The position numbers and the translations under genes are program-made. Under the pieces are notes generated by a model, which saw nothing but the letters and a program-made list of their open reading frames with translations, was not told where the DNA came from and made no database searches. Below, piece by piece: positions 29,177 through 62,619 of a DNA stretch of 64,000 nt. Position 1 is the stretch's first letter; the number at the start of each line of letters is the position of its first letter. The DNA is from Bacillota bacterium (GTDB taxonomy: Bacteria > Bacillota > Negativicutes > CTSoil-072): positions 12,086 through 76,085 of the forward strand of contig JAGFZV010000014.1 in NCBI GenBank assembly GCA_017889545.1, in the 5' to 3' direction.

Positions 29177-29430
29177 GAAAATTGCATGTAAAATAGTAAA
29201 TTCCCGGTCGCAAACGAAAGGAGAACTGCGCTCTTTTTTAAAAAAATGCAATTGGCCTCTAGCTCTTTTCATACACAAAAAACACAATTACTGTAATTTT
29301 GCAAAATAATACGCGTTTTGTTATTGCCCAGCATAATGTCTTTAATGCCAAAATAAATCCTGTTTTTGTGTATTTTGTGCCGATTTTTTCAAGATAAAAC
29401 AACTAACGCAATTTCTTATTTCGAGCAATC

Positions 29431-29853
29431 CTATAAAACAGCCTGTAGTAATAAATTTATATTGACCATAATACCAATGTCTTTGCTTACCTTCGCCTGC
29501 AAAGATTTATATTCTTCATTATTCAGTTTAGGGATTTTAACTTTGTGCCGTATTGCTGGCACTGCTTTTTCTTGGCTTGTACGGTTCTTCAACGGATTGA
29601 ATAATTCGCTAATCTTTTGGGCCGCCTCAAGTTCGTGTTGCCAAACATCCAGTTCTCCATTTTCATTATAGTAAGCATATGTTAAATAAACTTTTGCAAT
29701 ATCGGCTACACTCGCAACTTTATCGTGATGTACAATAGAAAACCAGGGAACATGTTTGCCTGCAAGGGCGGGAAATTTTCTGGTCATATCCGCCCCTACT
29801 CTAACAGCTCGGCCATCAATCAGCAGATAATTTTTCAGCTTCATACTGCACAT
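29431..29853 (-). CDS. Hypothetical protein
   Basis: 140-aa ORF downstream of the integrase; no family recognised. Confidence 0.5.
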   Translation of the reverse strand: MCSMKLKNYLLIDGRAVRVGADMTRKFPALAGKHVPWFSIVHHDKVASVADIAKVYLTYAYYNENGELDVWQHELEAAQKISELFNPLKNRTSQEKAVPAIRHKVKIPKLNNEEYKSLQAKVSKDIGIMVNINLLLQAVL

Positions 29854-30099
29854 CCCAACCTGTCATATCATTTCATAACATACATGACAATCAATGCCAA
29901 TGGTTTTATTTTAGCATAAACCATATAACCTTTGGTGTATATTTTAAATTTTAGCGCGGATGCGAAATGTCCATTATTTCCGCTATTAACAGCGGACCAT
30001 TCACTTCGAACAATTAATTAACTGTAATTTATTCGGAAATGAGCAGTTATAACCACTGATCCAACATTGGCATCTGCTCATTTCCATATTTTGATCCAA

Positions 30100-31332
30100 T
30101 TATTTTTCTGGCTCTTTGTGTGTCACAAATAACCCTTCCAAAGCTTTGCTTGCTGTTTCTTGCATATCCGGCAGCAAATGTGAATATGTATCCAGAGTCA
30201 TAACCACGGTGCTATGACCAAGCCGTTCCTGAACAATCTTCGGATTTACTCCCTGCAAAAGCAGCATGGTGGCGTGGGTATGCCGTAGGTCATGAAATTT
30301 AAAACTGGTATCGATTTCAGCTTGCCGGAGCATCTTCTTAAATGTCCGAGTAGTGAAATTACTCGTATCACAAACCCCACCAAACGTATTTGGGAATACC
30401 AAATTATCATCATGATATTTATCCCCAAGTGTTTGTTTGTATTCCTCCTGCCACTCTTTATGCAACCGAAGTTCCGCTGCAACGTCATTAGGCAAGGGTA
30501 TCTGCCGACGGCTTTTGGCAGTCTTTGGCTCTTGAAACGACTCTCCATTATATCCTTTGCGTCCGGTAATCAACGCCCGCCGTACATATACAATCCCTCT
30601 GTCAATATCAACGCTATCCCATTTCAACCCAAATACTTCACCTAACCGCATCCCTGTTGCCAGCGTCAACAATACGACCATATACGGAATTTTTCCAGTT
30701 TCTTTTGCTACTGCCGTCAGTTTTGTCGCTTGATCTTGTGTGAGCGGATGGATTTCCTCTTTGATAAGCTTCGGCGCTTCAGTTTGCTGAATTATGTTTT
30801 TGGTGAGCAAGCCGACTTTAACCGCCTGCCCCATCGCCATACTCAAATATCGCCGCACCGCCTTGACAGTGGATGTAGATATCCCTCGCTTTTCTTCTAT
30901 TTCGGTACCATCTTCCAATTTCTTTTTAAGAGGCCGTCCACCCTCCATCAGCAATTTATTGAACAATCTTTGCACATCTGGTGACTTTATTTCACCAATC
31001 GGCACTTTCCCAAGATAAGGTATTACATAGCAGCGCAGCGTTCCGGCATACTTGTCAAACGATTTTGGCCTAACTTTTGCTTTTACATAATCAGCCAACC
31101 ATCGCTCAATCCATTCCCCCAGGATCAATTTATCCGCATCAGGCAGCAAGCCATTTTTCAAATCTTTCAACCATATGCGACCCTTGCTCATTGCTTCCCT
31201 CTGGCTTTTCCCAGTAAACATACGGCGCTTTTTATCTCCAGACGCTTCATCCGCATAACTGAATCGTGCTTCCCAATATTTTTTTATTTTGTTATAACGC
31301 ACGGAGCCTTCGCCGTGACCTCTTTTTGCCAT
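30100..31332 (-). CDS. int: Tyrosine recombinase / integrase
   Basis: MAKRGHGEGS N-terminus, TGMRLGE, PKT, FHDLRHT, RLGHS, LDTYSH. Confidence 0.96.
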   Translation of the reverse strand: MAKRGHGEGSVRYNKIKKYWEARFSYADEASGDKKRRMFTGKSQREAMSKGRIWLKDLKNGLLPDADKLILGEWIERWLADYVKAKVRPKSFDKYAGTLRCYVIPYLGKVPIGEIKSPDVQRLFNKLLMEGGRPLKKKLEDGTEIEEKRGISTSTVKAVRRYLSMAMGQAVKVGLLTKNIIQQTEAPKLIKEEIHPLTQDQATKLTAVAKETGKIPYMVVLLTLATGMRLGEVFGLKWDSVDIDRGIVYVRRALITGRKGYNGESFQEPKTAKSRRQIPLPNDVAAELRLHKEWQEEYKQTLGDKYHDDNLVFPNTFGGVCDTSNFTTRTFKKMLRQAEIDTSFKFHDLRHTHATMLLLQGVNPKIVQERLGHSTVVMTLDTYSHLLPDMQETASKALEGLFVTHKEPEK

Positions 31333-31407
31333 GATAGCGTTCTCCTTTCTTAATAATTAGGAGAACGGCTGCACAATCCGCAACCCTTCTCCATTTCACC
31401 CGCTGGT

Positions 31408-31614
31408 TTACATGGTTTGCACCGATTGTGGACTAAGTAGGTTATCTATATACCATGATGGAATAAAAACCCTGCGCCCGACGTGGATCGACGGTATCTG
31501 CCCCTGCTTTAGCGCATGGTAAATACCCGATCGACTTAATGGCAGCGGCCCACCATTTTGTTTCAACAGTTCTAAGGGTTCGTAAAGTTTTTTATTTGCG
31601 AAATTCATGCACAC
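31408..31614 (-). CDS. Excisionase-like HTH protein
   Basis: LSRSGIYHALKQGQIPSIHVGRRVFIP; immediately upstream of int. Confidence 0.8.
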   Translation of the reverse strand: MCMNFANKKLYEPLELLKQNGGPLPLSRSGIYHALKQGQIPSIHVGRRVFIPSWYIDNLLSPQSVQTM

Positions 31615-31720
31615 ATCATCCTTTCAATTTTTTAAGCATACTCTTGGCACTCTGCATCACTGATAACAAATAACATTGGAAATTTTCCTTTTATCCGGTT
31701 TATTTACACAGCAAGCAATT

Positions 31721-33454
31721 TTAAGCTTGCACAAGTAATTGTTCCGGATCTGGTAATGTTGAAAAAGCATTATGGTACATATCTTCAAAATTATCCGGCA
31801 AAGATGCTTCTCCAATAGAAATTGGAGATATCACTTGTTGGATAGTGGGGGGCCGGTATTCCAAATCCTGCTCATTTATCGGTTCCGAAGATAATCTGTT
31901 GGGATTTAATAGCTCCTGATTAACTTCATACTGTTCTGAAGGTCTTCCAGGGCCTTCAGTTTCTTCCGTCTCAATAACGCGAATACAGCCTCTTTCGACA
32001 AGTAGTTCCAGCGGTTGCACCAGTACCCTTGCCTCCTTAAATATCACTCGCCCACGTAGCGCAGCGTGAATATCGCGGCGAGAAAATCTTTCAAGCCTTT
32101 TTGTTTGGATATAATCCCAAATTTCTGTGGCCATATCAATCACTGGATTTGCCCCCATTAACTCATAGGCTGCCACAGCGTGCTGCGACAAATAATCGCC
32201 AATCGCAATAGCGTTGCCCATCGTATCCAAACTAATTTCAGGCATTTCCGCTATGCTTACGTTGCTGTGCCTCACCAGATGTAAATTGGCAGCAATGCGC
32301 AGGACGGCACCGCACAGTTTCCCAGCCCAATCGGAAATACAGCTGAAATCACCAAATGGGCGCATCTTCGTTTCTACATCCAAGCGATATCTATTGAACC
32401 GTCTTCCCGCATCATGAGATAATCTGACTTCTTTGCCATTTTCAGTTGTTCCGCCAGTAGTCATACTTGATGTCAACAAAGACCGAATGACAGTATCATA
32501 GTTTGCGCGTACATCGACAGGTACAGAAGGCGGGTTAATAGCTCTATAGCCAATGGATGATGCGGGCAAAGAATACAGGAACCGCGCCAATAAACCTCTG
32601 CCCCGCAATCCAGGCTTGGTAATCAATCCTTTCAGTACGTCCGGCTGAATCGCAAGACCAATTGTCAATGCAGGCTTATTGATATATTCACTGGGGCGTC
32701 CCTTACGGTCCACTCTGATCGCATCACCGCTGTGAGCTTTCAATAGCACGTCTATGTTCGGTGTCCCCTTACCATTGCTATACATTCCGCCAACAATGAC
32801 ATTAAACAATGTTCCCTCTGCCGATAACACGGCCATCTTACCCGCTTGTTCATGCAATAGGCTTGTAAGCATTTCGGGAGTCACATCATCTGCAATACAT
32901 TTGGGTAAAACGGGCAAGTTAAATGCTGCCAACTCCTGCGTTACTGTATCCAATTCCATTTGAGTCGCAGCAGCGTCCGTTCCATTTTCACTGCGGCTAA
33001 GTTTTTTTATCAATTTCTCGATTTTTGCTTCCAATATTTTTTTTCGTATTTGCGCGGCCAAAACTATCTCTCTCATACTTGCCAATTGTTCTTGCTCGTG
33101 CCTCTGTAAAGGCTTTAAACACTCTTCAAACACACTGCTTTTTCGGTTCGCTGGCTCCATGGCAGCAGCAATATACAAATTAAGTGGTTCGGTCCAATCG
33201 TCAGAAAATCGAACAATCCAATTCTTTGCATTCACCGCCGCGGCAGTAGCAATAATAAGCAGCGCTGGAAGGTCTACCGGCGTCTGATAAGACAATGCAA
33301 GAGCATTTGCAAAAATCCGTAACGTTTCTGGCAATGATTCTATTGGAAAATCAGGCAATGTCTGCGACTGAAATGGCCTTGCACTGATGTTTTCTGATCC
33401 TTGAATTCCTTGTTGTTCCTGATTTTCTTCGATTTCTGATACATTATTATTCAT
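31721..33454 (-). CDS. YfjI / DUF3987 family replication helicase-like protein
   Basis: FPIESLP, EPLNLY, PANRKS, DDVTPE, DRKGR, RGLLARFL, C-terminal wHTH with GRPS; start at MNNNVS. Confidence 0.85.
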   Translation of the reverse strand: MNNNVSEIEENQEQQGIQGSENISARPFQSQTLPDFPIESLPETLRIFANALALSYQTPVDLPALLIIATAAAVNAKNWIVRFSDDWTEPLNLYIAAAMEPANRKSSVFEECLKPLQRHEQEQLASMREIVLAAQIRKKILEAKIEKLIKKLSRSENGTDAAATQMELDTVTQELAAFNLPVLPKCIADDVTPEMLTSLLHEQAGKMAVLSAEGTLFNVIVGGMYSNGKGTPNIDVLLKAHSGDAIRVDRKGRPSEYINKPALTIGLAIQPDVLKGLITKPGLRGRGLLARFLYSLPASSIGYRAINPPSVPVDVRANYDTVIRSLLTSSMTTGGTTENGKEVRLSHDAGRRFNRYRLDVETKMRPFGDFSCISDWAGKLCGAVLRIAANLHLVRHSNVSIAEMPEISLDTMGNAIAIGDYLSQHAVAAYELMGANPVIDMATEIWDYIQTKRLERFSRRDIHAALRGRVIFKEARVLVQPLELLVERGCIRVIETEETEGPGRPSEQYEVNQELLNPNRLSSEPINEQDLEYRPPTIQQVISPISIGEASLPDNFEDMYHNAFSTLPDPEQLLVQA

Positions 33455-33455
33455 C

Positions 33456-34373
33456 CTATTTATCCTCCTGCATATAACAATTATCTGTATTTTCAATAGC
33501 CCATGAAATAAGGGCTGCACCATAAGTTCGGCCATCCGCATACCGTATACTATCCCACTTTTCGCGATAAAGGCCGGAAGCACGAAATATTCTATCCGTC
33601 TGCTCTGCATTCCAGCCGGTCCAGAACGCCAGCATGCAACAGAATGCGGCATCGGCTTCACTCTGCGACGGGTAATTATCCCAATCCCCGGAATAAAGGT
33701 CTTCGAAGGATTCACCATTTGCTGCGTAAGATGCGATCTCAACTAATTCGGCGTCGTCCAATTCCATACTACGACGTCGTTTACTTTGCTGAACAAACTC
33801 GGCCTGGCCTATAGAATATTTCTTTGGCTTTATATATTCCCGATGAATTGCTGCAACTTGTTCGTGCCGGTCACATATTTGCAGCGGACTGCCTTCGAGA
33901 TGGTTTCCAGTAATGGTCAAAAAGCGGCCGGAATCATACATCTCAACGCCATTTGCTGTATTCTTTCTTCCTGCTGGCGGAAGTTCCCCGAACAGCATGA
34001 TCCGGATACCGTGCCCGGATGGAGAAATTTCAGTGTAACTTGAAGCAACGTGAATAATCCTCTGTGCCAATGTTGAAATCTGCCCGTCACTAATGCAATC
34101 GTCAATGTCGATGCCAACCAGATCGTCATCAGCAGATAACGCAATCATTATGCCCGCTATCTTTTTGTGCGAACGCATACATACAAGGGCTTGGTTGTAT
34201 GTTGCCCAAGTTCTGGAATCGTTGGATTTTGCCCCGCACCCTGTAATAGGGCTGATGGGAATTTTGTTAAACTTTCTTCGACTTTCATCCCAAACTTTTT
34301 TGTAACAAACCCAGCGGGTCTCATCAATGAATTGGTTGAAAACCGACGATATTTTATTGAGATTTGAATTCAT
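33456..34373 (-). CDS. Primase-polymerase (AEP / NrS-1-like) with a helical bundle domain
   Basis: RWVCY, KIP, GIDIDDC, YTEISPSGHGIR, EMYDSGRFLTITG, SQSEADAA, SGLYREKW. Confidence 0.88.
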   Translation of the reverse strand: MNSNLNKISSVFNQFIDETRWVCYKKVWDESRRKFNKIPISPITGCGAKSNDSRTWATYNQALVCMRSHKKIAGIMIALSADDDLVGIDIDDCISDGQISTLAQRIIHVASSYTEISPSGHGIRIMLFGELPPAGRKNTANGVEMYDSGRFLTITGNHLEGSPLQICDRHEQVAAIHREYIKPKKYSIGQAEFVQQSKRRRSMELDDAELVEIASYAANGESFEDLYSGDWDNYPSQSEADAAFCCMLAFWTGWNAEQTDRIFRASGLYREKWDSIRYADGRTYGAALISWAIENTDNCYMQEDK

Positions 34374-34671
34374 ATTTACCTCCACTTAAATGTTTATTTA
34401 GTTTTCATAGGAGCCGCACAAAAAACACAAAATAGCATTACAACATTTTCCAAACACCCTTATGGTATTTGTTGCGCAAGGATCCCTTTGCAACAATTAT
34501 CCGCCCACAACTCTCAGATTATTTCATTATTCACCCCTTTCTTGCCAAAAGACCTACTTCTCGGTTTATTCATGTTGATACAACCTTTGCGTTTCCAGTA
34601 CAAATATATTGTAATATTTCCCTTGAAATCGCAGTGATGTCAGTTTATGATTACAAGAAGGAGGGATTGAA

Positions 34672-35754
34672 ATGAACTTGAAAACTAATTATCAAATTGG
34701 CGGTTCCACCGTTACTTTTGCTGCTCTGGAGTGGTCTGTTTATGGAAATTATGAAATCATAAATGTTGTTAAATATATAGAAAGACAAAATAAACAAGCG
34801 CAACAGCGCTTATTAAATATTGAGCCGGATTTTTCTGAATTAGTGCACGAATATCTATCGGATGTGTTCGTAATTGTTCCAAATTATCAAGCTCCATCGT
34901 CCACATACAACCCGCTCAAATATAAAGCTACAATCATGTTGGCATTAATGAAATCATGTCAGACAGGCAGTTATTTATCAGCTGATGATTTTTCTGATGA
35001 ACAAATCATTGCATGGGCCAGGGAATTTGGATTACCTTTTAATATTCCGTATTATCCCCACTACAATTTTGGCGGGATGGAAAACGAATTAAATGACACG
35101 GATACTTTGATTGGTGTAGCTTATCGCTTTGAAATGATTTTGTATCAAGCTTTCGAACATTATGTCATGTTTCGACAATCATTCCAGGCCTTGATGAGGG
35201 AGGCAATCAATTTAGTCAAAGGTTACACCGCTTTTTCCAGTAATAAATATGATGAAATGATTGAGGCTTTTTCTTTTTTAGCAAGTTCCAAAGATGCTGC
35301 TCCCATGTGGGATATATTGAATGGCGTTGCTGCCGATTTTCCTGCCGCAGAACTGAATAATTATATACGAGAAACTTTGGCCTCACTTTTATCACAGCAT
35401 ATTTCCGGTTATTTAAATTTTGTTTCCCCTGTTATGTTGCAAACTTCTTCCCGGACAAACTTATCAAATATAATATTTGCACCCACTTGGATGGTTCCAA
35501 ATCTATGGACAGCCCTGATCGTTCAGCTTTACGAATCAATGATCAGAAACCAGCCCTTTAAAAAATGTGAATATTGCGGCACAGAATTCGAGGCTACTGA
35601 TCCAAGAATGCGGTTTTGTCCTAGAACGCAAAGTGTAAACGGCAATGTAATTGTTGTAAAAAACGAACGAAGTTATTGCCAGAATATGGCCAAAGTAAAG
35701 TCATTTAGGGAAAAAAAGAGAATGGCTTCAGCTGCATCGACAACTAGCAACTGA
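34672..35754 (+). CDS. Hypothetical protein with a C-terminal CGNR-like zinc ribbon; candidate regulator
   Basis: KKCEYCGTEF...RFCP...YCQNMAKVKSFR; divergent from the replication operon. Confidence 0.6.
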   Translation: MNLKTNYQIGGSTVTFAALEWSVYGNYEIINVVKYIERQNKQAQQRLLNIEPDFSELVHEYLSDVFVIVPNYQAPSSTYNPLKYKATIMLALMKSCQTGSYLSADDFSDEQIIAWAREFGLPFNIPYYPHYNFGGMENELNDTDTLIGVAYRFEMILYQAFEHYVMFRQSFQALMREAINLVKGYTAFSSNKYDEMIEAFSFLASSKDAAPMWDILNGVAADFPAAELNNYIRETLASLLSQHISGYLNFVSPVMLQTSSRTNLSNIIFAPTWMVPNLWTALIVQLYESMIRNQPFKKCEYCGTEFEATDPRMRFCPRTQSVNGNVIVVKNERSYCQNMAKVKSFREKKRMASAASTTSN

Positions 35755-35780
35755 TCACCTTTCTCTTTTAATCATAAAAC

Positions 35781-35981
35781 TTATTTGGTACCAACTTCCA
35801 ACCACTTGCGCAAAGAATCCCGATATATTTTGTTGCTTTTCCCTATTTGGACTTTAGGAAAGCCCTCCTGATTAACCAACGCATAAGCGGTTGCCGTGCC
35901 TATCTCAAGAATTTCACATAAATCTTTAATCGACAATATTAAAGGGATGTCTTCCCACACCACCCTGCTTTTATGCCTCAT
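35781..35981 (-). CDS. HTH_17 excisionase-like protein
   Basis: PLILSIKDLCEILEIGTATAYALV...FPKVQIG. Confidence 0.8.
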   Translation of the reverse strand: MRHKSRVVWEDIPLILSIKDLCEILEIGTATAYALVNQEGFPKVQIGKSNKIYRDSLRKWLEVGTK

Positions 35982-36285
35982 CAACCTCGTCCTCCAAATC
36001 AGCATACCGAAATAATACTAATAAAGCCTTAATTGACGGAAGTTTTTCAGCATAATCAAAAGAATCTCTTCCCATAAAATCTTGTTTATTTGCATCGGCT
36101 TTATAATGGAGTAATAGCCTGATCATTGGAATATCATTATTTTTGACGGCGGCCATTAGGGGGGTAATTTTTTCAGTTGCATTGTTCACACTGTCAGGAT
36201 TCAATTTCTCAAGCAACAGTTTTTTGACTTTTTGGGCATCACCGGATTCCACGGCGAGGAATAATTGTTTTTCTAACTTGCGCAT
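35971..36285 (-). CDS. Ankyrin-repeat protein
   Basis: LFLAVESGD, TPLMAAVKNND..MIRLLL..ADAN. Confidence 0.85.
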   Translation of the reverse strand: MRKLEKQLFLAVESGDAQKVKKLLLEKLNPDSVNNATEKITPLMAAVKNNDIPMIRLLLHYKADANKQDFMGRDSFDYAEKLPSIKALLVLFRYADLEDEVDEA

Positions 36286-36887
36286 TCAGCCAATACCTCT
36301 CTTATAATTTTATTGAAAATCATGCTTTTTTTTCGGTTATAACCATATGTCAGCCATGGATATCGTATGTCAAAATCAGCAAGCCGCTGATAATATCTTT
36401 CCGGCACTTTAATTTTCATTAGCTTTCCCCATTGATCCAAATCATATCGCTTTGCGATTGCTTTCAATACCACCTTTTTTATCGGGGCTCTCGGCAATTC
36501 ATATCGATCATACGCGGCTAATAAATCATACTCTTTATTTATTACTATCAAATCACTAGCTGCAAACTTAGCCGCATTGGCTGCTGTACAATCAGGATTA
36601 TAATGCGCCAAAAGTTCAATGGCTTCCGGGGTCACAGCACAGATCAAAGCTCGACCAACAATTTCAGGGTCATTGCCCATCCCCGATTGAAGTAATACTT
36701 CTGCGACTCCCAAATAGTTTCTCTCCACAGCAGCATACAAAGCGTTGTAATGATCGAATTCTATATATGGGTCTGCACCCAAATCAAGAAACTTTTTCAC
36801 TTCAGCTACGTTTCCACCATCGCTTGCGCAATACAAATTATCATTAAGCTGTCTCTGTTTCGTTTTTAGCTTGTCACGATTGCTCAT
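36273..36887 (-). CDS. Ankyrin-repeat protein
   Basis: ASDGGNVAEVKKFLDLGADP, ALYAAVERNYLGVAEVLL. Confidence 0.75.
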   Translation of the reverse strand: MSNRDKLKTKQRQLNDNLYCASDGGNVAEVKKFLDLGADPYIEFDHYNALYAAVERNYLGVAEVLLQSGMGNDPEIVGRALICAVTPEAIELLAHYNPDCTAANAAKFAASDLIVINKEYDLLAAYDRYELPRAPIKKVVLKAIAKRYDLDQWGKLMKIKVPERYYQRLADFDIRYPWLTYGYNRKKSMIFNKIIREVLAECAS

Positions 36888-36931
36888 TTAACATCTACTC
36901 CCATTACTTATTGCCGATTTTTCTCGTGCGG

Positions 36932-37519
36932 TTACTCTGTCGCCTCATACGCCTCCTCTTCCGGAAAGGCCAGTTTATTATTCAATTTCTTGACTTGTTT
37001 ATAGATCAAAGATGGTCTTACCCGAAGCCTGACATCCAACTCTTCCATCGGATCATCAAAAGGAATTTTTGCCAGCGAAGCATCCACCATTTTCGTCGCC
37101 TCCACCGTCAAAACTTCGTCAATGCTCTGGGGCAAGCCAGGATTGCCTATTTTGCCATTTAAACCGACAATTTTCAGCAATTCGATGGCTGCCTTGAGAT
37201 CACCAGATTCGATAGCCTGTTCCAAGACATCCACAGATTTATCTACAAGACCGCGCAACCGTTGTTTACTATTGCCCCATAACTCGGCCCGATACTTACT
37301 GATAGCCGAAACAAAATACGGGTTTTTTTGCCAGACCCACAACTGATGTCTTGAAATTCCAGCGGTATCTGCCACTTCTTGCACTTTTTTTCCGAAAGCC
37401 AACAGCTCTGCAGCGTTCATTTGCTTTACCGTCAAGCCATTTTCCAATCGTGCATTTTGTGATTTTTGGGGATCTTTCGTTATCGTTGTATTTTCACAGT
37501 TTGTTGCCTTTTCTGCCAT
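36932..37519 (-). CDS. HTH protein resembling small-terminase-like (phBC6A51-type) DNA-binding proteins
   Basis: LTVKQMNAAELL, EVADTAGISRHQLWVWQKNPYF, GDLKAAIELL. Confidence 0.6.
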   Translation of the reverse strand: MAEKATNCENTTITKDPQKSQNARLENGLTVKQMNAAELLAFGKKVQEVADTAGISRHQLWVWQKNPYFVSAISKYRAELWGNSKQRLRGLVDKSVDVLEQAIESGDLKAAIELLKIVGLNGKIGNPGLPQSIDEVLTVEATKMVDASLAKIPFDDPMEELDVRLRVRPSLIYKQVKKLNNKLAFPEEEAYEATE

Positions 37520-38340: not shown

Positions 38341-38349
38341 TCCCTCCTT

Positions 38350-53861: not shown

Positions 53862-54021
53862 TTTTACACCCCCCTTGATATTTTCAGTGTCAATATGACA
53901 CTTTTAACTTTAATTTTCTATACATTAATCCACTTTCCTGCAAAAAAATGTCTAATCGCCACATATATTGAAGTTTTCTTTTCACGTATGTATCGTTACA
54001 GTCAGGGGAGTGTGGCGAAAT

Positions 54022-54345: not shown

Positions 54346-54375
54346 AAACTTGGAAAGAAAGCGGCTTTTTATTAT

Positions 54376-54569
54376 TCAAATAACAACGATGACTTTTTCC
54401 GGCCTTTCACTCTCGTCTAATCGGTTCAATCTCACACCAACATCATTAATCCTTATTCCCACTGCATCCAATAACGCTGTTGATCCATGAGCAAAATATT
54501 CCTTTTTGGTAATTGGCCGTACCTGTCTGATATCCAGACCATTATGCAAAATCTCGTATTTGTCATCAA
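54376..54569 (-). pseudogene. Internal fragment of a vWA gene (DDKYEILH...PEKVIVVI)
   Basis: Clear nucleotide and protein similarity to the middle of 51503-52156. Confidence 0.88.
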
Positions 54570-55123
54570 GGGTGAAATAGGTAAAAAGAAAGCAGATCAT
54601 GGTTGACGCCATGTCTGCTACAAATGATTTTTTGTTTATAAAAACATGCACAAAATACACAATATTAATTACTCACCATGGGCTAAAATAAAAAGGCGCA
54701 TCAGATGTTTCCTGTAACACAGATTCACCAGTATGAAATATTTTTGTGTATTTTGTGTATGGATTAGTCCATTAAAAATTTTCAATATGTGCTTTTACGA
54801 AAAGATCGTCGAATCGCCCATCCAAACAGAGAGCCTGCATCTTTATCACCCTTCCTTTGTTATGAATTCTAGCTTGAACACCCTGAATTATAACGGAAAG
54901 GTGATTTTTTTGTATAACTTTCGTTTCCGCACCCGCATAGCGGGCGGTTTATTGCGGAGCGCAAAGCAACACGCTCCACGGGCTAAAGCCAATAATGAAA
55001 AGAGTCGCCATTGCTAACGTATCAGTATTTACATAATGCTGACACGTCATTTTTTTGTATTTTGTGTTTCTTTTTATGGACGAATAACCAAAACTAAGCA
55101 GGGAAATGACATGATGGTAAGAA

Positions 55124-55852
55124 TTGTATAAGGAAAGTTGCAATATTCTACTAATGTTAGGAAGTGATGCCAACGTGACAACAGCAATTGCCAACCAAAA
55201 TGATCTTGTCAATAATTGCGATAAATTGATGAACGATATATCATTTCGGCTCGAAGTGGTTCGATCTTATCAGAAGTCAATTAACATGAAATTGGCCGGA
55301 GAATTTAACGTATTTAAACTGATGAACCCAAATGAAAATACATTATCGGATGTCCTTGCTGATATGCTGAGGCCCGATGGTACACATGGACAAGGCGATG
55401 TTTTCCTAAAGCTTTTCTTATCCCGCTTGGGCTTTGCAAACCATCCCTCTACAGTTAAAATTAATGTTCGGCGAGAAGTGCCAACTAATAATATACTTAA
55501 CTCAGAAAGACGGATTGATATACTAACTGATTTCGGCGGCCAATACGGGATCGGCATAGAAAATAAACCATGGGCAGCCGACTTGTCCAATCAGGTTGGC
55601 GATTACTGTTCCCACCTGGACAAGCTTTATGGCGATAAGTACATGTTCGTATATTTGCCACCGTATGATCGCGATCCAGACAATGGGTCACTCCATAAAC
55701 TAGACTTGCTGAAGCAACGTAATGGGTATTGTTGTTTATCATATAATTCTGGATTAAAAAATTGGATGGAAGACTGCCTGAAAGAATGTAAGGCAGATAA
55801 ATACCGTTGGTTCTTGCAGAACTTTATCGAATATGTGGAAAATGAATTTTGA
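55124..55852 (+). CDS. PD-(D/E)XK nuclease (PDDEXK_4-like); start uncertain
   Basis: ENTLSDVLA..P.GTHGQGDVFL, RRE, RIDIL, IENK, QVGDY. Confidence 0.85.
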   Translation: MYKESCNILLMLGSDANVTTAIANQNDLVNNCDKLMNDISFRLEVVRSYQKSINMKLAGEFNVFKLMNPNENTLSDVLADMLRPDGTHGQGDVFLKLFLSRLGFANHPSTVKINVRREVPTNNILNSERRIDILTDFGGQYGIGIENKPWAADLSNQVGDYCSHLDKLYGDKYMFVYLPPYDRDPDNGSLHKLDLLKQRNGYCCLSYNSGLKNWMEDCLKECKADKYRWFLQNFIEYVENEF

Positions 55853-55866
55853 AGGAGTGACCTAAG

Positions 55867-56463
55867 ATGAATTCAGATAAAGACGTGATCATAAATTATT
55901 TTTTTGAAAAAAATTCAGATGACAACATGTACATTGCATTGACGCTCGGCTATAACATTACAGACTTAAAGATTAAAATTATTAAGGATTTTTGGAATTC
56001 ATTAGAACAACATCTACGTTTATCTCCAATGCTTAAAAATATTAGTGATTGGCAAATACAAAATGATTTTCAGTCAGATTTTTGGGGCAAACGCTACAAT
56101 GGGTTTCGCATTTTAAAAACCGGTTGGGCTGATGGTTATGCAATCGAAATAAATGCAGATTTAGGTAATGTCAACGACCTTTGCGTCGGTGTAAAGAAAC
56201 CAACAACTGCCCACCCGCTTGATAATCAAGTCCTTAGAAACAAATTAGACGAAAAAATGGGAATTGGCGGCCCTATTGCAGAAGACGGAGTATGGGAATG
56301 GTGGAAGGCACTCGATAATAAATGGCGCTACTGTGATAATGCGGATACCATGATGAGGTTATATCAAAAAATAGAAGGCGTTGAGTATATGGCAGAAAAA
56401 ATGCTAGCCATTCTGAACGTCTCTGAAGACTATCTTGATAAAACCGGTATAACAAAACCATGA
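55867..56463 (+). CDS. Hypothetical partner of the nuclease
   Basis: RBS AAGGAG, starts 14 bp after the nuclease stop. Confidence 0.6.
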   Translation: MNSDKDVIINYFFEKNSDDNMYIALTLGYNITDLKIKIIKDFWNSLEQHLRLSPMLKNISDWQIQNDFQSDFWGKRYNGFRILKTGWADGYAIEINADLGNVNDLCVGVKKPTTAHPLDNQVLRNKLDEKMGIGGPIAEDGVWEWWKALDNKWRYCDNADTMMRLYQKIEGVEYMAEKMLAILNVSEDYLDKTGITKP

Positions 56464-56516
56464 TTGGCTGTCTATAATATCGTCATCTTGCTCAAAAATG
56501 ACTTGTCATCAAACGA

Positions 56517-56737
56517 TACTCCCCGGACTGGGCAATTTCGTTTAAGAAAGGCGCAGTGAAGCATATCTTCTTCATCGCCGAAACTAAAGGGACGATGGGC
56601 AGTCTTGAACTCCACCCGATTGAACAGGCGAAGATCTCCTGTGCCAAGAAGCTGTTCAACGAGATTTCCACCACCGAGTGAAGTACCACGACGTGGACAG
56701 CTACCAGAGCCTGCTCGCGGTGATAGAAATGCTGTAA
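56517..56737 (+). pseudogene. 3' remnant of a second type III Res gene
   Basis: YSPDWAISFKKGAVKHIFFIAETKGTMGSLELHPIEQAKISCAKKLF, then a frameshift, then KYHDVDSYQSLL. Confidence 0.8.
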
Positions 56738-56770
56738 GTAAAGTGATTCTGCTCTCAGGAGGGCCGAAAA

Positions 56771-59767
56771 ATGGATTTTGACAAACAAAAAATTGGCAAT
56801 AAGAACTTCATCGCATATGCCCCGAAGGGTTCGGTTTGGAGTAGCGTTAACGATGTTCTCTCCTCCTGGACAGCCAACCGTTTCTGTTTTCCTGAAAGTA
56901 AATCTGAAGGCGAAGTTGGATTCCGTTCTGCGCAATTGGGAGCCGTGTTCGCTATCAAGTCACATTGGACGGTAACCGATTCTGCAGCAACGATTGTTAT
57001 GCCAACAGGGACAGGAAAAACCGAGGTTATAATAGCGACCGTAGTATCGGAATGTCGAGGAAAGACTTTCGTTGTCGTGCCAAGCGACCTACTGCGCAAA
57101 CAAACAATACATCGCTTTTGCACTCTCGGGAAATTGCGTGAAATAGGAGCGATTTGTGGTTCTTTTTGCAACCCCATCGTTGGCTGTCTTGTGTCTTCTC
57201 CGAAAGATGTAGCCGAACTGGAAGATTTACTTAGCAAAAGTAATGTTGTTGTCACAACGATGTCGTTGCTGAATTCAGGTCACTTTAGTGATGAGTTCCT
57301 CAAGATATTATCAGCCAAGTGCGATACGCTGATTATTGATGAGGCCCATCACGTTCCTGCAATTTCATGGAAACGCGTGAAAAAGTCATTTGATAAGAAT
57401 AGATGCCTTCAATTTACCGCCACACCTTTTCGTAACGACGGCAAAAAAATAGATGGAGACATTATTTATAACTTCCCGCTTCCCCTCGCCCAGGAGCGCG
57501 GTTACTTCAAGCCTATAAACTTTTATCCGATTTACGAATTTGACAGCGACAAGAAGGATTTCACTGTCGCTGCGAAAGCGGTCGAACTCCTTGAGGCGGA
57601 TATTGCAAGGGGATTTTCTCATTTGTTATTAGTGCGAGCATCAACACAAAATCGCGCAAAAGAGTTGTATGAAAGCGTATATAAAGCAAATTATTCAAAG
57701 CACTGCCCTGTCCTAATTATCAGCGGCAATTCTGCCCAAGAGAACAGAATGGCTCTCCAAAAGATCAACGACGGCGTTGCTACGATTATTATTTGCGTCG
57801 ATATGTTTAGCGAGGGTATAGACATTCCGCAATTGAAAATCTGCGCGATTCACGATAAGTACAAATCACTACCGATAACTATGCAGTTTATTGGGCGCTT
57901 TGCCCGGACGCAAACTAACCTCGGCGAGGCTTCCGTCGTTGCAAACATTGTTGATGATGATATACAGGATTCATTGGAGGATTTATACTCTCAGGATGCG
58001 GATTGGAATAAGCTTCTGAAAGATGCGTCCGAAGAAAAAATCGGACGTGAAATTGAATTGCAAAGACTGGCTCGTGGGTTTACGGGGACTGAAGTAATAC
58101 CCCTTAATCAGATTAGACCCAAAGTCAGTATGTTTATGTACACAACGACCGAAACAAGCTGGCATTGGCAAAGGTGGAGCAAAGTTTTTAATGAAGAACA
58201 TAGCCACCATTTTGTGAACGAGCAAGAAAAAATCTTGATAGTAACGGAACTTCGCACAAGTAATGTAGATTGGACGACTTGTCGAGAAATAACCGATGAG
58301 AACTGGAATTTGCATATCCTGTACTGGGATGAAAGAAAAAAGGTCTTTTTCATCAATACAACAGACAAAGGAATAGCTGACCGTTTAGCCGAAGCTGTTT
58401 TTTATAGTTACAAACGTATAGCAGGAGAAGATGTTTTTCGCTGCCTTTCAGGAATCAACCGTCTTATGCTCTCAACCGTAGGGCTTAAAACTGCCGTATC
58501 CAATCATCATATTAGGTATAGAATGTTTGCCGGCGTTGACGTAGCGGAGGGCATTACGCGAGCAACGACAAGCACCGCTACAAAGTCAAACTTGTTTGGC
58601 GTAGGCTTTGAAAACGGGAGCAGTATAAGTATTGGCTGCTCATATAAAGGAACGATTTGGGCAAAATGGGTTGAAACCATAAACTACTGGAAAAGTTGGT
58701 GCGATAAGCAAGCTGTAAAAATCTTGGATTCTACGATTGATACAAAGACAGTGCTTAGTGGAGCCCTCGTGCCAGAAGTAATACAAACTCGTCCGACTGT
58801 TGTCCCTTATCGTATTGACTTTCCACTTGAAATCGAAGCCGAATTGCGAGGTTCAATCCTTTTGAAAACAAGCCTCTATGAGGCGAGACCTTTCCTTGTT
58901 GATATTGGACTGACCGCCTTTGATGATACTTCGCCCCTGTCATTCTATGTTGGGAATGAAGATTTCAGAGCGGAATTCATCCTTGAAATCAACGCAACTG
59001 ACTATACGATTTCACATAAGAGCGGTTCCATTATTAGGATAGTCGTAAGCCGCAGCAGAGAAATGTCCCTAACAGAGTTTTTTCGTGAAAACCCGCCAAC
59101 GATATGGTTTGTCGACGGGTCTTCACTTGAAGGCAATTTGCTCGTTAAACTCAAGAATAGTCCACCTGCAACTTTTCCCAGCTCAAATATTACGCCTTGG
59201 GATTGGAACGGGATCGATATTCGTAAAGAATCTCAAGGACTAAGTAAAGAGAATGACAGCATTCAGTCTCGGCTGATATCTGCACTCAAAAGTAGTAATC
59301 GATATAACCTCATCTTTGACGATGATGGTTCAGGTGAAGTGGCTGATGTTATTGCAATACAGGAAGATGATACGAAAGCAAGATTGTTGTTTGAATTCTA
59401 CCATTGCAAGTTCTCAGGTGCCGCCCAAGCTGGTTCTAGGGTAGACGATTTATATGCCGTTTGTGGGCAAGCCGAAAAGTGTATTAAATGGACAAGCGAC
59501 GCAAAATCGTTAACCGACCGTTTAATGAAGCGCGAAAGCGATAGAACTGGTAAAAGCAAGCCATCTCGATTTGAGGTGGGAGATAATAAAGTTCTGTTTA
59601 CCCTCAAAAACAAACTCAAGTTGTACTCGGTAGAGTACAGAGTATTCATAGTTCAACCAGGTGTCGATAGTAACGCCATTACATCGCCGATGCACCAAGT
59701 ATTGTGTAGTGCATCGGCCTACCTAATGGACACATACGGTATTCCACTAAATCTGATATGTTCATAA
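56771..59767 (+). CDS. SF2 DEAH helicase with a putative C-terminal nuclease-like domain
   Basis: MPTGTGKT, IDEAHH, FTATPFR, QFIGRFAR; C-terminal DDGSGEVAD..HCK..CGQA. Confidence 0.85.
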   Translation: MDFDKQKIGNKNFIAYAPKGSVWSSVNDVLSSWTANRFCFPESKSEGEVGFRSAQLGAVFAIKSHWTVTDSAATIVMPTGTGKTEVIIATVVSECRGKTFVVVPSDLLRKQTIHRFCTLGKLREIGAICGSFCNPIVGCLVSSPKDVAELEDLLSKSNVVVTTMSLLNSGHFSDEFLKILSAKCDTLIIDEAHHVPAISWKRVKKSFDKNRCLQFTATPFRNDGKKIDGDIIYNFPLPLAQERGYFKPINFYPIYEFDSDKKDFTVAAKAVELLEADIARGFSHLLLVRASTQNRAKELYESVYKANYSKHCPVLIISGNSAQENRMALQKINDGVATIIICVDMFSEGIDIPQLKICAIHDKYKSLPITMQFIGRFARTQTNLGEASVVANIVDDDIQDSLEDLYSQDADWNKLLKDASEEKIGREIELQRLARGFTGTEVIPLNQIRPKVSMFMYTTTETSWHWQRWSKVFNEEHSHHFVNEQEKILIVTELRTSNVDWTTCREITDENWNLHILYWDERKKVFFINTTDKGIADRLAEAVFYSYKRIAGEDVFRCLSGINRLMLSTVGLKTAVSNHHIRYRMFAGVDVAEGITRATTSTATKSNLFGVGFENGSSISIGCSYKGTIWAKWVETINYWKSWCDKQAVKILDSTIDTKTVLSGALVPEVIQTRPTVVPYRIDFPLEIEAELRGSILLKTSLYEARPFLVDIGLTAFDDTSPLSFYVGNEDFRAEFILEINATDYTISHKSGSIIRIVVSRSREMSLTEFFRENPPTIWFVDGSSLEGNLLVKLKNSPPATFPSSNITPWDWNGIDIRKESQGLSKENDSIQSRLISALKSSNRYNLIFDDDGSGEVADVIAIQEDDTKARLLFEFYHCKFSGAAQAGSRVDDLYAVCGQAEKCIKWTSDAKSLTDRLMKRESDRTGKSKPSRFEVGDNKVLFTLKNKLKLYSVEYRVFIVQPGVDSNAITSPMHQVLCSASAYLMDTYGIPLNLICS

Positions 59768-59799
59768 AACAAAAAATTCATCGGAATGACGAAGTTCCT

Positions 59800-60042
59800 G
59801 ACCTGCCGACCGTAATTGCCCTCGCATCCTGCGCCCTCGGCAAGCCGACCCTTTCAAGCCTCGCGGTGCTTGGTGAAATCAGTATCAGCGGCACAATCCT
59901 TAAGGTCGAGGAACCGGCGAGTGTCCTTCAAGTCGTCCGCCACCGACTCGGCAAAGTTCCGGCAGATCTTATCGGCGCGTTTAGCCTGATATTTTACTCA
60001 ACCCCACAGGAAGCTGTGTTTAAGGCTTTGTGCGTGGAATAG
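59800..60042 (+). pseudogene. brxL: 3' remnant of BREX Lon-like protease brxL with an internal deletion
   Basis: LAVLGEISISGTILKVEE...VPADLIGAFSLIFY..EAVFKAL.VE matches the BrxL C-terminus as recalled; no other brx genes in the window. Confidence 0.75.
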
Positions 60043-60073
60043 ACACATAATACCAAGAGGAGGTACAGTTTCT

Positions 60074-62239
60074 ATGCTGAAATTCAATTCAATCGAAAAT
60101 GCTGAAATTTTCACGAGAGATTTCAGGCCACTCACAAAAAATAACGAGATTAACTTCCCATCATGCGGGGAGGAAATCGTCGCTATCTACGGACCCAACG
60201 GGACTGGAAAAACCAGTCTTATTAAAGTGCTGTCCGGCACCAAAGGTGCAAAGGTAAAATTCGAATTTGAAGGAACCAAGTATACTTCTGGAGCCACGGT
60301 ATTCCACGTCATTAACGACCAGAACAACAGAAATATCATCGTTGGTGAAACCAAGGACTTCTTTCTCGGTGATAATATCAAGCGAGAATTTGAGTTGCAG
60401 AAACTACTTTCCGATGCCCACGTGACAATTGTCAACGAAGTTATCTCCAAGTTGAAATCCAATCACAGCATATCGTCGGCCAGTAGTCCATTACTTGCGC
60501 TTATTACAGAAACCGAAATAGCCGAAATCGTAAAGGACATAGTGAACAACAAGTCCAAAGGCGCGAAATACGAAACTGCGGTCATATTCAAAAAATTTGC
60601 TGCGATACCCCTTGTCAATCAAGATGTAAGCGAAGAACAGCAGGCAAAACTGGTATTCTTGAAATCTGACTACACCAGCAAGGATCCCATAATACAACAG
60701 ATTGAAAATATGGCGAAGAAAGCAGTTGTGGCTAACCCGCAAGTTCATGAAGTTGAGGAGAACTCTGAGGCTATTCGGATACTCGACCGTTTCCATAAAG
60801 ACCAGTGCATTGTTTGTGACTCGGAAGACATCGACTGGAAGACACTACTGTCGGCAAAGACGGACAATCGGACAAAAGTTATCGAGGCACTGGATAAAGA
60901 CGTTCAGGCACTCATACAGAAAATCATAGCGTTAATTCCAGACAATAACCCGTTCAACATTAAAATACTGTTGCTTGAAGCCATCAGCAACGGCGACAAG
61001 AGTAAAATTGATACTTTGGTAACTGATTTCACCACTATTAAGAAGATTTTCGAGCGGCAAGTCATGAATGAACTTGCGACCGTTTTTGTTGGTAGTGATT
61101 TGCCAGCCAAAATGGAGGAGTATCAAAAACTGCTTGATGAAAAGCCCGAAATCACAGATGAGGACATGCTCTACATCGACGAAATTATTAACAACAGTAT
61201 GAACAAGAAACTTTCGTTAAAACGTGATGACAAGAAGAATCTCCGAATCACCCTGGCCAACAACGAATTTTTGGGCAAGGCAAGAGATGAGTTGCCATTA
61301 AGCACAGGCGAGCAAAATTTTTTGTCCTTAACTTTCGAGTTCTTAAAAGCAAAGAACTCACCCTGCCCAATCGTCATAATTGACGACCCGATTTCAAGTT
61401 TTGACTCGATCTACAAGAACAAAGTTGTCTACGCCATCGTCAAAATGCTTCATCACAAAAAGCGGATTGTTTTAACCCACAATACGGATTTACTTCGATT
61501 ACTTGATGGGCAATATAAGCGTTGCTACAAACTGTATTTGTTGAATAACACCGAGGGCGAGGAAAACGGCTTCATCCCGCTGAATAACAAGGAACAAGAA
61601 ATGCTGATCAGCCTTGAAAAGCTACTCACCGCCTTTCGTGGAGCAATCTTCGACCACATCAAAAATGTGAACATATTCTTGATTTCGATGATTCCTTTTA
61701 TGCGCGGTTACGCCAATATCATAAACAACGAGACGCTCACTAACCTCCTAACACAGGTGATGCATGGATATAAGAACGACAAGATCGACATCGCAAAAGC
61801 CTATATAGAGTTGTTCGGAAACAAGAACGGCAAAATACCCGATTCCTATGAGGTTTCTGTCCCTGACATTCTGGCGAAGACAGTAGACGGCGTAAACATC
61901 CTTGACACTACTCAGTACCTGCTACTTGATAAGACACTGCGCCATTCATTCACATATCTGTTTCTGAGGTTGCTGGTGGAAAAGAAACTGGTCGAGAAGT
62001 TCGACATCGACACCAATCAACACAAGCAGTTAGGGCAGATTATTAGTGCTGCGTACCCAGATGAAAATGACATCACCCAGATTCGCAATCGAATCAGGCT
62101 TACCTCCAAGAAAACGCTGATAAATGAGTTTAATCACTTTGAGGGAAATCTGAGCATTTTCCAGCCCGCAATTGACATTACCGACCATGCTCTTGGCAAG
62201 GAGCGAACCGAGGTAGTGGCATTCGTGAGCAGCCTATAA
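60074..62239 (+). CDS. ABC/SMC-like ATPase, RloC-like (AAA_13)
   Basis: YGPNGTGKT, CIVC zinc hook in a coiled coil, LSTGEQ, IDDPISSFD, LTHN, C-terminal INEFNH. Confidence 0.75.
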   Translation: MLKFNSIENAEIFTRDFRPLTKNNEINFPSCGEEIVAIYGPNGTGKTSLIKVLSGTKGAKVKFEFEGTKYTSGATVFHVINDQNNRNIIVGETKDFFLGDNIKREFELQKLLSDAHVTIVNEVISKLKSNHSISSASSPLLALITETEIAEIVKDIVNNKSKGAKYETAVIFKKFAAIPLVNQDVSEEQQAKLVFLKSDYTSKDPIIQQIENMAKKAVVANPQVHEVEENSEAIRILDRFHKDQCIVCDSEDIDWKTLLSAKTDNRTKVIEALDKDVQALIQKIIALIPDNNPFNIKILLLEAISNGDKSKIDTLVTDFTTIKKIFERQVMNELATVFVGSDLPAKMEEYQKLLDEKPEITDEDMLYIDEIINNSMNKKLSLKRDDKKNLRITLANNEFLGKARDELPLSTGEQNFLSLTFEFLKAKNSPCPIVIIDDPISSFDSIYKNKVVYAIVKMLHHKKRIVLTHNTDLLRLLDGQYKRCYKLYLLNNTEGEENGFIPLNNKEQEMLISLEKLLTAFRGAIFDHIKNVNIFLISMIPFMRGYANIINNETLTNLLTQVMHGYKNDKIDIAKAYIELFGNKNGKIPDSYEVSVPDILAKTVDGVNILDTTQYLLLDKTLRHSFTYLFLRLLVEKKLVEKFDIDTNQHKQLGQIISAAYPDENDITQIRNRIRLTSKKTLINEFNHFEGNLSIFQPAIDITDHALGKERTEVVAFVSSL

Positions 62240-62619
62240 TGAAAAAAACCATAGCTGCTCTTGCTGTCAGTTATTGGGGCTTTGAAAAAGTATTACCATA
62301 AGACTAACACTCGTGGTTATCCCCCACATAATACTGTTCAAGCATTTCTCGCACAATTGGATATACTGGTCAGCGGTCACCAAATCATTGCCACAAATAC
62401 CAATATTCCGCAAAGCCTATCCTATCAATACAATTATTTTATCCTTTTTTTAAAAAACCTCCGCAAAATACACAAAATCCATTGCATAGTATTTTGTTTG
62501 ATATTTGTATTCCGCTGATTATTGTGGATTTTGTGAACGTTTTAAGCAGGTCAAATTAATTGCATATGGGACTTGTTGTTGCTTCAGATATCACACAATC
62601 CATCTGGTGTTAATACGTT

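Follow-up and report, generated by a model that had tools for sequence, protein, structure and literature searches.

Small excisionase-type regulators, such as Vis of P4, Cox of P2, Apl of 186 and Xis2c/Xis2d of CTnDOT, act both at attachment (att) sites and at promoters. The stoperators of cluster A mycobacteriophages (L5 gp71) are dispersed asymmetric sites of 13–14 bp, present in 20–30 copies and in one orientation with respect to transcription. SXT/R391 elements residing in tandem form hybrids via their own Bet/Exo recombination system and possess hotspots of variable DNA, and iterons are found at the origins of P4 and of the staphylococcal pathogenicity islands (SaPIs). Here we describe a genomic island of a Bacillota bacterium (class Negativicutes; GenBank assembly GCA_017889545.1) in which a 14-bp motif, CACAAAATACACAA, recurs from end to end. 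The island, 33.7 kb long, resides at a tRNA-Gly gene within a window of 64,000 nt (contig JAGFZV010000014.1, positions 12,086 to 76,085 of the forward strand; coordinates below are those of the window) and is flanked by a perfect 54-nt direct repeat representing the 3′ half of tRNA-Gly(CCC). A preliminary description of the window had listed ten copies of the motif and proposed either that one protein acts at them to coordinate excision, replication and recombination genes or that they mark the boundaries of exchangeable cassettes. We found that the motif is virtually restricted to the island and that the similarity to a related island ends exactly at the outer edge of one copy.

Searching the window for the 14-mer with at most one mismatch yielded 11 matches, whereas 100 shuffles averaged 0.02 and never exceeded 1. 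All ten copies listed previously were reproduced by this pattern search in coordinate and strand, and an eleventh, CACAAAATAAACAA, was added at 44187 on the plus strand. The part of the window outside 29274–62535 contained zero matches. Allowing two mismatches raised the count to 13 (1.04 expected), both additional matches (34784 and 37448) lying inside the island. In the whole genome (3.27 Mb in 50 contigs, 96% complete), 12 matches with at most one mismatch were found, 11 in the island and one on another contig (C31), while the five exact copies were all within the island; the probability of at least 11 out of 12 matches falling into 1% of the genome is 1.6e-21. Taken by itself, the number of matches is not an extreme one, as 500 letter-permuted 14-mers had on average 3.6 matches in the genome and 5 of the 500 reached at least 12. 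The signal is the clustering in the island rather than the number of matches in the genome. With 11 of 12 matches and every exact one in the island, a host-wide signal is excluded, and so is the possibility, raised in the preliminary description, that the motif is equally frequent in AT-rich intergenic DNA across the genome. The description of the copies as mostly intergenic also held: ten of the 11 are non-coding, even though a conservative gene list leaves only 14.2% of the island non-coding (P = 3e-8). The exception is the added copy at 44187, which overlaps the final five codons of the 8xMP gene and may be a chance match or a decayed copy. The motif was at background level in 60 relatives and in 400 genomes of the class. 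One genome with six matches (G247) proved to be a false lead, the matches being located within the reading frame of an IS transposase.

The actual repeated unit is larger than the 14-mer. It spans ∼24 bp, with a core word of 16 bp, and consists of two direct TTTTGTG heptads spaced 9 bp apart, which accounts for the internal 9-bp period noticed previously. Read as the reverse complement, it has the form tTTTTGTG-TA-TTTTGTG-yAtG followed by a weak T run. Of the two heptads, the one at the CAC end shows the stronger conservation, with GTG retained in ten of the 11 copies. In an anchored alignment of the 11 copies, information was confined to approximately positions −8 to +16, conservation being lost ∼8 bp beyond either side. 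Alignment of the copy surroundings with MAFFT revealed no further common sequence, and no longer shared element was found around the copies except for a 28-nt block common to those at 40753 and 55053. Conservation restricted to the heptads and ∼8 bp on each side, with no long shared flank, points to a binding site rather than to a copied element. Outside the 11 sites, the island shows no enrichment of solitary heptads (8 in 33.6 kb, compared to 5 in the 29 kb of the left flank).

The inverted pairs reported inside each end of the island and at 54649/54744 are real, and all three are convergent (in the CAC-to-CAA direction). The members of each pair are separated by an inner gap of 78 bp at the left end (29274/29366), 81 bp in the internal pair and 46 bp at the right end (62462/62522). 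The end pairs lie 236–341 bp inside attL and 144–217 bp inside attR. Seven of the 11 copies are internal, so that the motif is not restricted to the attachment region, and five are unpaired. Copies upstream of the operons for primase and DUF932 had been noted as well, and they are indeed located 44 and 164 nt, respectively, before the ATG codons, with further copies at block borders. The orientation of the copies with respect to transcription is mixed, the two backbone operons seeing opposite orientations.

The evidence that a copy can be a junction comes from a soil metagenome. A run index showed that three DNA runs of one soil-metagenome study share a small part of the words, and the contigs of these runs were compared with window positions 28501–48500. 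For one contig of 31,910 bp (X1 record 5), the match to the window starts at 29009, inside attL, and extends as far as 40766, with 843 differences (∼93% identity); past 40766, ∼20 kb of the contig has no match to the compared stretch. A second contig, of 23,372 bp and from a second run (X2 record 15), ceases to match at the identical base. This base, 40766, forms the outer (CAC) end of the copy at 40753–40766. In this intergenic region of 522 bp, a break would come to lie only a few bases from a motif edge with a chance of roughly 1–3%. The non-matching continuation of the relative begins with a -ATGATTTT- pattern, which is also found outside copy 51113; a weak outer flank has therefore been kept, while everything further out differs. 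In addition, a contig of 613 bp joins the att repeat to a sequence that is 1 base in 30 off the right end of the island. Taken together with the match of the longest contig, it follows that the relative has both ends and the backbone in common with the island, whereas the backbone-adjacent cargo is not shared. Since homology is lost exactly at its outer edge, at least copy 40753 is, judging from this one break in one study, a joint between core and cargo. The copies of the left end offer weak support for conservation: among the 40 of 868 differences listed, 19 substitutions and two one-base insertions fall into 29189–29488, and the 28 bases of the two copies contain none, compared to ∼2 expected. 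The earlier interpretation is thus supported in part. The cassette-boundary idea has gained one direct piece of support at a single site, 40753, where the relative is collinear to the outer edge and unrelated beyond it, and gene fragments and a duplicated leader block lie beside internal copies; the single regulator is a conjecture that fits the positions of the copies.

The fragments were revealed by self-comparison of the window. Two pieces of a VWA gene, similar to the intact one at 51503–52156, lie beside copies 40753 and 54649 and are 13.5 kb apart from each other (Table 1). Their breakpoints have 4 nt in common, located in a part of the intact gene that resembles the motif (ATTTTGTTTGATGA). 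A transposon-like simple insertion into the VWA gene was ruled out, as the two fragments are in the wrong order. The 28-nt block mentioned above occupies 40700–40727, in the leader of DUF932 and 25 nt inside copy 40753, and recurs at 54994–55020; none of 1000 shuffles reached its score. The recurrence of the leader block and the VWA fragments beside copies are as expected if joints were duplicated by recombination between islands. Directly to the left of attL, a degenerate version of the right-end terminator and att start was identified at 27997–28055 (80% similar to 62643–62702), and the degenerate att copy is followed, up to 28984, by a relic of 930 bp with a 103-aa open reading frame (ORF). 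The stretch 27997–28984 is probably what is left of an island that occupied this tRNA gene earlier; the degenerate att copy and the relic indicate that tandem integration has happened at this site. The VWA fragments, the repeated leader block and the att relic collectively suggest repeated tandem occupation of the tRNA gene followed by recombination and deletion, and the non-coding stretch of 780 bp that contains three copies (54346–55123) may then be a pile-up of old joints. As a separate observation, the 28-nt block of the DUF932 leader precedes a mini-ORF of 11 codons with its own ribosome-binding site, and the two could constitute an attenuator.

Our preferred, though tentative, interpretation of the sequence is that one island-encoded DNA-binding protein recognises the unit, which is located at the ends of the island and at the borders of its units, and that related islands also recombine there. 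The protein would be encoded in the conserved backbone, and two of its protomers would sit head to tail on the two direct heptads. It would meet its site in four kinds of places: before the two leftward backbone operons, at the junction of backbone and cargo, between cargo blocks and, as convergent pairs, inside att. Common control of the replication, recombination and excision genes by one protein would follow, which is plausible in view of the copy positions, and the same protein could insulate these genes against read-through from constitutive defence cargo and from host genes. Otherwise unrelated modules have no sequence in common but the site, and this would make it also the place where related islands recombine. 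Having integrated in tandem at the tRNA gene, such islands might recombine at the site with the help of either RecA or the ERF protein and exonuclease of the island, and the cargo swaps resulting from this would end at the site.

The gene content of the island is compatible with several of these steps (Table 1). The backbone comprises a leftward replication operon (primase-helicase-xis-int) and a second leftward operon in the order DUF932, 89-aa ORF, exonuclease-like protein, ERF, TerS-like HTH, two ankyrin proteins and HTH_17. ERF and the exonuclease-like protein are the candidate engine of recombination at short homologies. It counts in favour of an island-encoded binder that the backbone specifies several small DNA-binding candidates. 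We infer that the HTH_17 proteins (35781–36005 and 31408–31614) are the best of these, ahead of the 360-aa CGNR-like zinc-ribbon protein and, in the last place, of the unassigned C-terminal 145 residues of the helicase. The HTH_17 protein of 74 aa matches a PHROG named 'excisionase and transcriptional regulator' (2.4e-4). For the 360-aa protein no Pfam match over the cut-off was obtained; in the ESM Atlas, the clusters closest to it are those of DUF6076 and CGNR zinc-finger proteins from Bacillota and phages (feature score 0.97, TM 0.52–0.56).

The right two thirds of the island are cargo: an 866-aa protein with a ThsB-like TIR protein and the 8xMP protein, a Type III restriction-modification pair, the VWA operon, an EcsC-like gene, a CI-like HTH gene, a PDDEXK_4 protein (PADLOC candidate PDC-S26), a large helicase, a BrxL-C-terminal-like ORF and an AAA_13 ATPase. 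The trio at 41112–44659 has no PADLOC match, and its 866-aa member displays weak nucleoside deoxyribosyltransferase-like and AAA matches; the three genes could represent an undescribed defence set. The 94-aa ORF at 59758–60042, between the 998-aa helicase and the AAA_13 ATPase, matches the C-terminal end of BrxL only (3.5e-15). The tRNA was the sole Rfam match.

A second type of repeat is found closer to the att cores. Doublets of TTGGTCACC lie between the end pairs and the att core, in the same orientation at both ends, within stretches of 80 nt that are 70% similar to each other (29100–29179 and 62565–62644). The tandem doublet occurs in the genome at these two positions only, the single 9-mer 22 times. 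The doublets are likely to be arm sites of the integrase, for which they are better candidates than the motif pairs; alternatively, they are candidate origin iterons.

Table 1. Motif copies, borders, neighbouring genes and repeats of the island (window coordinates; aa, amino acids)
Feature	Position	Strand	Evidence or remark
attL, 54-nt direct repeat	28985–29038	.	100% identical to 62679–62732
Two direct TTGGTCACC units, 12 bp apart, 117–137 bp inside attL	29155–29175	+	Sequence repeat
140-aa gene beside left pair		 	Leftmost island gene; no usable relatives or model
Motif copy, left member of left-end pair	29274–29287	+	1 mismatch
Motif copy, right member of left-end pair, 52 nt past stop of 140-aa gene	29366–29379	-	Exact
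Tyrosine integrase	30100–31332	-	Pfam Phage_integrase 1.2e-28; PHROG 1
68-aa Xis/AlpA-like ORF between helicase and int, candidate binder	31408–31614	-	HTH_17 E = 0.001, 19.7 bits, under cut-off 27
DUF3987 helicase ORF	31721–33742	-	DUF3987 3.6e-92
NrS-1-like primase-polymerase ORF, likely ATG 34373	33456–34385	-	NrS1-1_pol-like_HBD 1.5e-25; PHROG DNA primase 2e-85
Motif copy, divergent region, upstream of primase ATG and 240 nt upstream of 360-aa gene	34417–34430	+	1 mismatch
360-aa C-terminal zinc-ribbon protein, divergent from primase operon, candidate binder	34672–35754	+	ESM Atlas
74-aa HTH_17 protein, last gene of DUF932-ERF operon, candidate binder	35781–36005	-	HTH_17 5.1e-10
ERF single-strand annealing protein	37747–38340	-	ERF 2.9e-13
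Exonuclease-like protein	38350–39243	-	PHROG exonuclease 7.1e-22
Hairpin and T run, 21 nt inside copy 40753	40700–40731	-	Terminator-like match; fold z = -2.4
Motif copy, core/cargo joint, upstream of DUF932 ATG	40753–40766	-	Exact
VWA gene fragment, start region, ∼50 codons, 72 nt outside copy 40753	40838–41000	-	71% identical to 52005–52169
Motif-like copy over last five codons of 8xMP gene	44187–44200	+	1 mismatch; no hairpin nearby
Motif copy between convergent Type III res gene and VWA operon, abuts hairpin 51129–51168	51113–51126	+	Exact
VWA gene fragment, codons ∼50–113, 79 nt outside copy 54649	54379–54569	-	88% identical to 51818–52008
Motif copy, left member of internal pair	54649–54662	+	Exact
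Motif copy, right member of internal pair	54744–54757	-	Exact
Second copy of 28-nt hairpin/T-run block, 32 nt inside copy 55053	54994–55020	-	Similarity to first copy; fold
Motif copy, 57 nt upstream of PDDEXK_4 ORF	55053–55066	-	1 mismatch
Motif copy, left member of right-end pair	62462–62475	+	1 mismatch
Motif copy, right member of right-end pair, 144 bp from attR	62522–62535	-	1 mismatch
Two direct TTGGTCACC units, 12 bp apart, 39–59 bp inside attR	62620–62640	+	Sequence repeat
attR, 54-nt direct repeat inside tRNA-Gly(CCC) 62688–62762 (minus strand)	62679–62732	.	100% identical to attL

Several observations weigh against a site read by a protein of the island. Between the two backbone operons, not only the orientation of the site but also its distance to the downstream gene differs, and the mixed orientation with respect to transcription is unlike that of stoperators. 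Compared to the TTGGTCACC repeats, the end pairs are more distant from the core, a position unusual for the sites of a directionality factor. Scans for promoters and terminators gave no common geometry around the copies. Searches with the helicase protein found no close relatives in genome contigs and one weak match of 54 residues in metagenome contigs. Of 400 other genomes of the class, 11 had a helicase match, all with at most 40% identity, and in eight distant island relatives (helicase 33–40% identical) no comparable dispersed motif and no 11-mer repeated at least five times was detected, four of the eight having an 11-mer repeated four times. The sole homologue of the 360-aa protein in the 400 genomes (27% identity) has no motif nearby. 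Finally, the same heptad arrays occur genome-wide in three unrelated metagenome-assembled genomes (MAGs) in which no homologue of the 360-aa and HTH_17 proteins was found. It follows that the sequence may be independent of an island protein, and the arrays in other phyla are not explained by a site of such a protein.

The three MAGs were retrieved by searching 596 Gb of genomes for the pair pattern, which gave three loci, one each in an Acidobacteriota, a Planctomycetota and a Victivallales MAG. Each locus is an array of the heptad seen in the island, with a period of 9–10 bp and unchanged polarity (CAC left, GTG right), and lies between housekeeping genes (gyrA/lon, enolase, argD). TTTTGTGNNTTTTGTG occurs 133 times in the Acidobacteriota MAG (G401), 16 times in each of the Planctomycetota (G402) and Victivallales (G403) MAGs and 5 times in the genome studied here (G000), the reversed control being 0 in all four; the exact 16-mer of the island is present, among the matches listed, in two of the three MAGs. 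Copy density is ∼1 per 3 kb in the island, zero in the rest of its genome and 1 per 49 kb in the richest MAG. The acidobacterial elements are palindromes, with arms of 3–4 CACAAAA units at a 9-bp period and with variable centres, and they start right at the stop codons of the flanking genes (15 of 16 loci viewed). Units of the planctomycete are similar to the acidobacterial ones, and the Victivallales MAG contains single triple arrays adjoining a multi-copy sequence of ∼150 nt. These triple arrays end in GTGGAC, and the adjoining conserved sequence recurs near contig ends; seven Victivallales loci had no match in Rfam. Genes of PF13366 (PDDEXK_3, GxxExxY) number 3, 4 and 0 in the acidobacterial, planctomycete and Victivallales MAGs, respectively, and those of PF05635 (S23p) 3, 1 and 0. 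Five of the seven PDDEXK_3 genes are bracketed by inverted arms of phased heptads, the heptad differing from one gene copy to another, and a decayed PDDEXK_3 gene lies between CACAAAA arms in the acidobacterial MAG (G401:C4:805856-806053). PDDEXK_4 was considered as a protein linking the island to the three MAGs and was ruled out, since it is not common to them. Searching viral contigs with the pair pattern (14-mer, 60–90 nt, reverse 14-mer) gave 0 matches, and with a 17-mer, among the matches listed, only single matches or 9-bp tandem arrays in unrelated contigs. In IMG/VR, unrelated viral contigs, some of them from giant-virus bins, contain the 9-bp unit in long arrays, tandem or clustered, which may be iteron-like or simple satellites. 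A literature search on the raw heptad returned noise only. Paired sites composed of three tandem repeats of this type are described for Geobacter metallireducens as putative global-regulator sites of 'class 2' (PMC2700814).

These arrays raise an alternative that we regard as unlikely, yet as the foremost of the alternatives, namely that the copies are arms or half-arms of small, REP-like and possibly selfish palindromic elements built of CAC heptads. The three pairs would be units without a gene and the single copies half-units, the full form would enclose a PDDEXK_3 (GxxExxY) or S23p gene, and the copies would mark borders simply because the elements insert and rearrange between genes. Heptad, period and polarity shared with the three MAG loci, along with the arms that bracket PDDEXK_3 genes there, speak for such an origin. 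So do the inverted CAC-heptad arms and variable centres (46–81 bp) of the three island pairs, the break of homology at the CAC end of an arm and the paired triple-repeat sites of G. metallireducens. However, three of the four defining features fail in the island. Its arms have two units rather than 3–5 and do not abut stop codons, the nearest stop codon to any copy being 52 nt away; neither PF13366 nor PF05635 has a member in the genome, which also lacks any other family of heptad palindromes. Furthermore, five of the 11 copies are unpaired, the copies have not spread through the genome, two of them are conserved in front of backbone operons, and an A/T-rich heptad with CAC could arise twice independently. 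A site for an island protein and a palindromic element could both be correct descriptions if the arrays are portable protein-binding modules.

Replication offers another, rather improbable explanation, in which the copies are priming sites or origin iterons for the replication proteins of the island, TTTTGTG being read as a GTG triplet with a 5′ T run. At convergent pairs, synthesis would begin on both strands across an AT-rich gap, and excision would bring the end pairs and four TTGGTCACC units together around attP, creating an origin present only in the circle. The island does encode an NrS-1-type primase-polymerase with a helix-bundle domain as well as a DUF3987 helicase, one copy is located just before the primase gene, where initiators often autoregulate, and confinement to the island suits an island-encoded enzyme. 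According to the NrS-1 study, that enzyme recognises TTTGGTTA and GTG(A/G) and begins synthesis from the first upstream base (PMC8718748); TTTGGTCA, within the att-proximal TTGGTCACC repeats, is one base off the TTTGGTTA site so described. On the other hand, GTG alone needs no conserved 16–24-mer, the copies are scattered over 33 kb rather than placed next to the replication genes, there is no polarity switch in strand orientation, and both the homology break and the neighbouring gene fragments are left unexplained. We consider it still less probable that the copies serve a dedicated site-specific recombination which inverts, deletes or captures cassettes in the manner of a shufflon or integron. 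The homology break exactly at one copy, the occurrence of both orientations, the fragments and duplicated blocks beside internal copies and the VWA breakpoint within the motif-like stretch ATTTTGTTTGATGA would all be accommodated. Nevertheless, the tRNA-targeting integrase is the only site-specific recombinase found in the island, the site lacks the dyad and central spacer of tyrosine and serine recombinase cores, and pair gaps of 46–81 bp are very short for inversion. The metagenome contigs showed no joints, although contigs drop rare variants. The VWA fragments, moreover, stop 72–79 bp short of the copies rather than at them, which also counts against recombination at a protein-binding site of the island.

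An explanation that dispenses with a protein altogether, and to which we give the same low probability as to dedicated recombination, takes the motif for the T-rich tail (A-rich lead on the other strand) of intrinsic terminators or insulators, its uniformity reflecting common descent of the modules. At copies 51113 and 55053 a hairpin is indeed followed within 0–2 nt by the T-rich form; at 51113 the hairpin 51129–51168 (minus strand, z = −2.5) runs directly into it. Hairpins with z near −2.4 or −2.5 lie 0–32 nt inside copies 40753, 51113 and 55053, the members of the pairs fold on each other (z = −1.7, −3.8 for 54649/54744 and −2.1), and most copies are downstream of at least one gene. Such an arrangement, with the hairpin immediately before the T-rich form, is nevertheless limited to two of the 11 copies, and base-exact conservation over 16 nt is not normal for terminator tails. 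Copy 34417 lies between divergent genes, its downstream fold not being significant (z = −1.5), and host terminators do not use the sequence, which has one match outside the island. Terminator-like matches in the island are at shuffle level; promoter-like ones are near the shuffle expectation except in 45000–62800 (63 compared to 41.2, sd 6.2). On the minus strand at 51107–51134, a promoter-like TTGGCA-16-TATGAT, the spacer of which coincides exactly with the 16-bp site, points antisense into the 3′ end of res.

Defence islands and phage satellites swap cargo fast, and the sequences at which the swaps take place are rarely pinned down. Should one protein read the site, the island would possess a compact system of global control and insulation and, at the same time, a natural 'linker' for the exchange of cargo. 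A broader idea, speculative and in our opinion quite unlikely, is that CAC-heptad arrays are portable boundary modules which the island uses as exchange joints between backbone and defence cargo, possibly also as insulators. If so, the island would be the first case in which such arrays have a readable role, with a swap junction mapped to the base. The link to the heptad-array palindromes of other phyla provides that puzzle with a small and tractable model.

Compared to the systems described previously, the island shares with those governed by excisionase-type regulators short direct-repeat sites in the att arms and before element operons, and it encodes HTH_17 proteins of this kind; it differs in that copies are also found between cargo blocks, the end copies form convergent pairs beyond the putative arm repeats, and the binder is a candidate only. 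Pairs in both arms near the core are likewise reminiscent of integrase arm and directionality sites, among which the seven internal copies would be out of place. With the stoperators it has in common an asymmetric site in many copies, confined to the element and situated in short intergenic gaps, but there are 11 copies instead of 20–30, their orientation is mixed, and, again, the binder is a candidate. Integron cassette sites are a poor match, as the only integrase of the island is the tRNA-site one at the far left, both orientations occur and pairs are empty. P4, the SaPIs and NrS-1 with its primase recognition sites resemble it in having a primase-helicase replicon on a satellite-like island, inverted repeat sets across AT-rich DNA and GTG with an upstream T run, whereas its copies are scattered over the whole island and not beside replication genes. 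The CAC-heptad palindromes of the MAGs and of G. metallireducens share the heptad with the 9-bp period (as in the three MAGs), the polarity of paired arms and the varying centres; in contrast, the island has two units per arm and copies that are confined to it and not placed at stop codons, and its genome has no PDDEXK_3 or S23p gene. As in SXT/R391, a conserved backbone is combined with sharply bounded cargo, an annealing protein with an exonuclease and evidence of tandem att occupancy, but one short repeated site lies at the junction, and recombination there would be deduced from a single homology break. Sites that are dispersed over a mobile element and restricted to it are of a known kind, and so are mosaic joints at conserved sites. 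What is new is that the two roles meet on one short double-heptad site of a defence-carrying tRNA island, at a joint mapped to the base and in a word shared with an unexplained class of repeats from other phyla.

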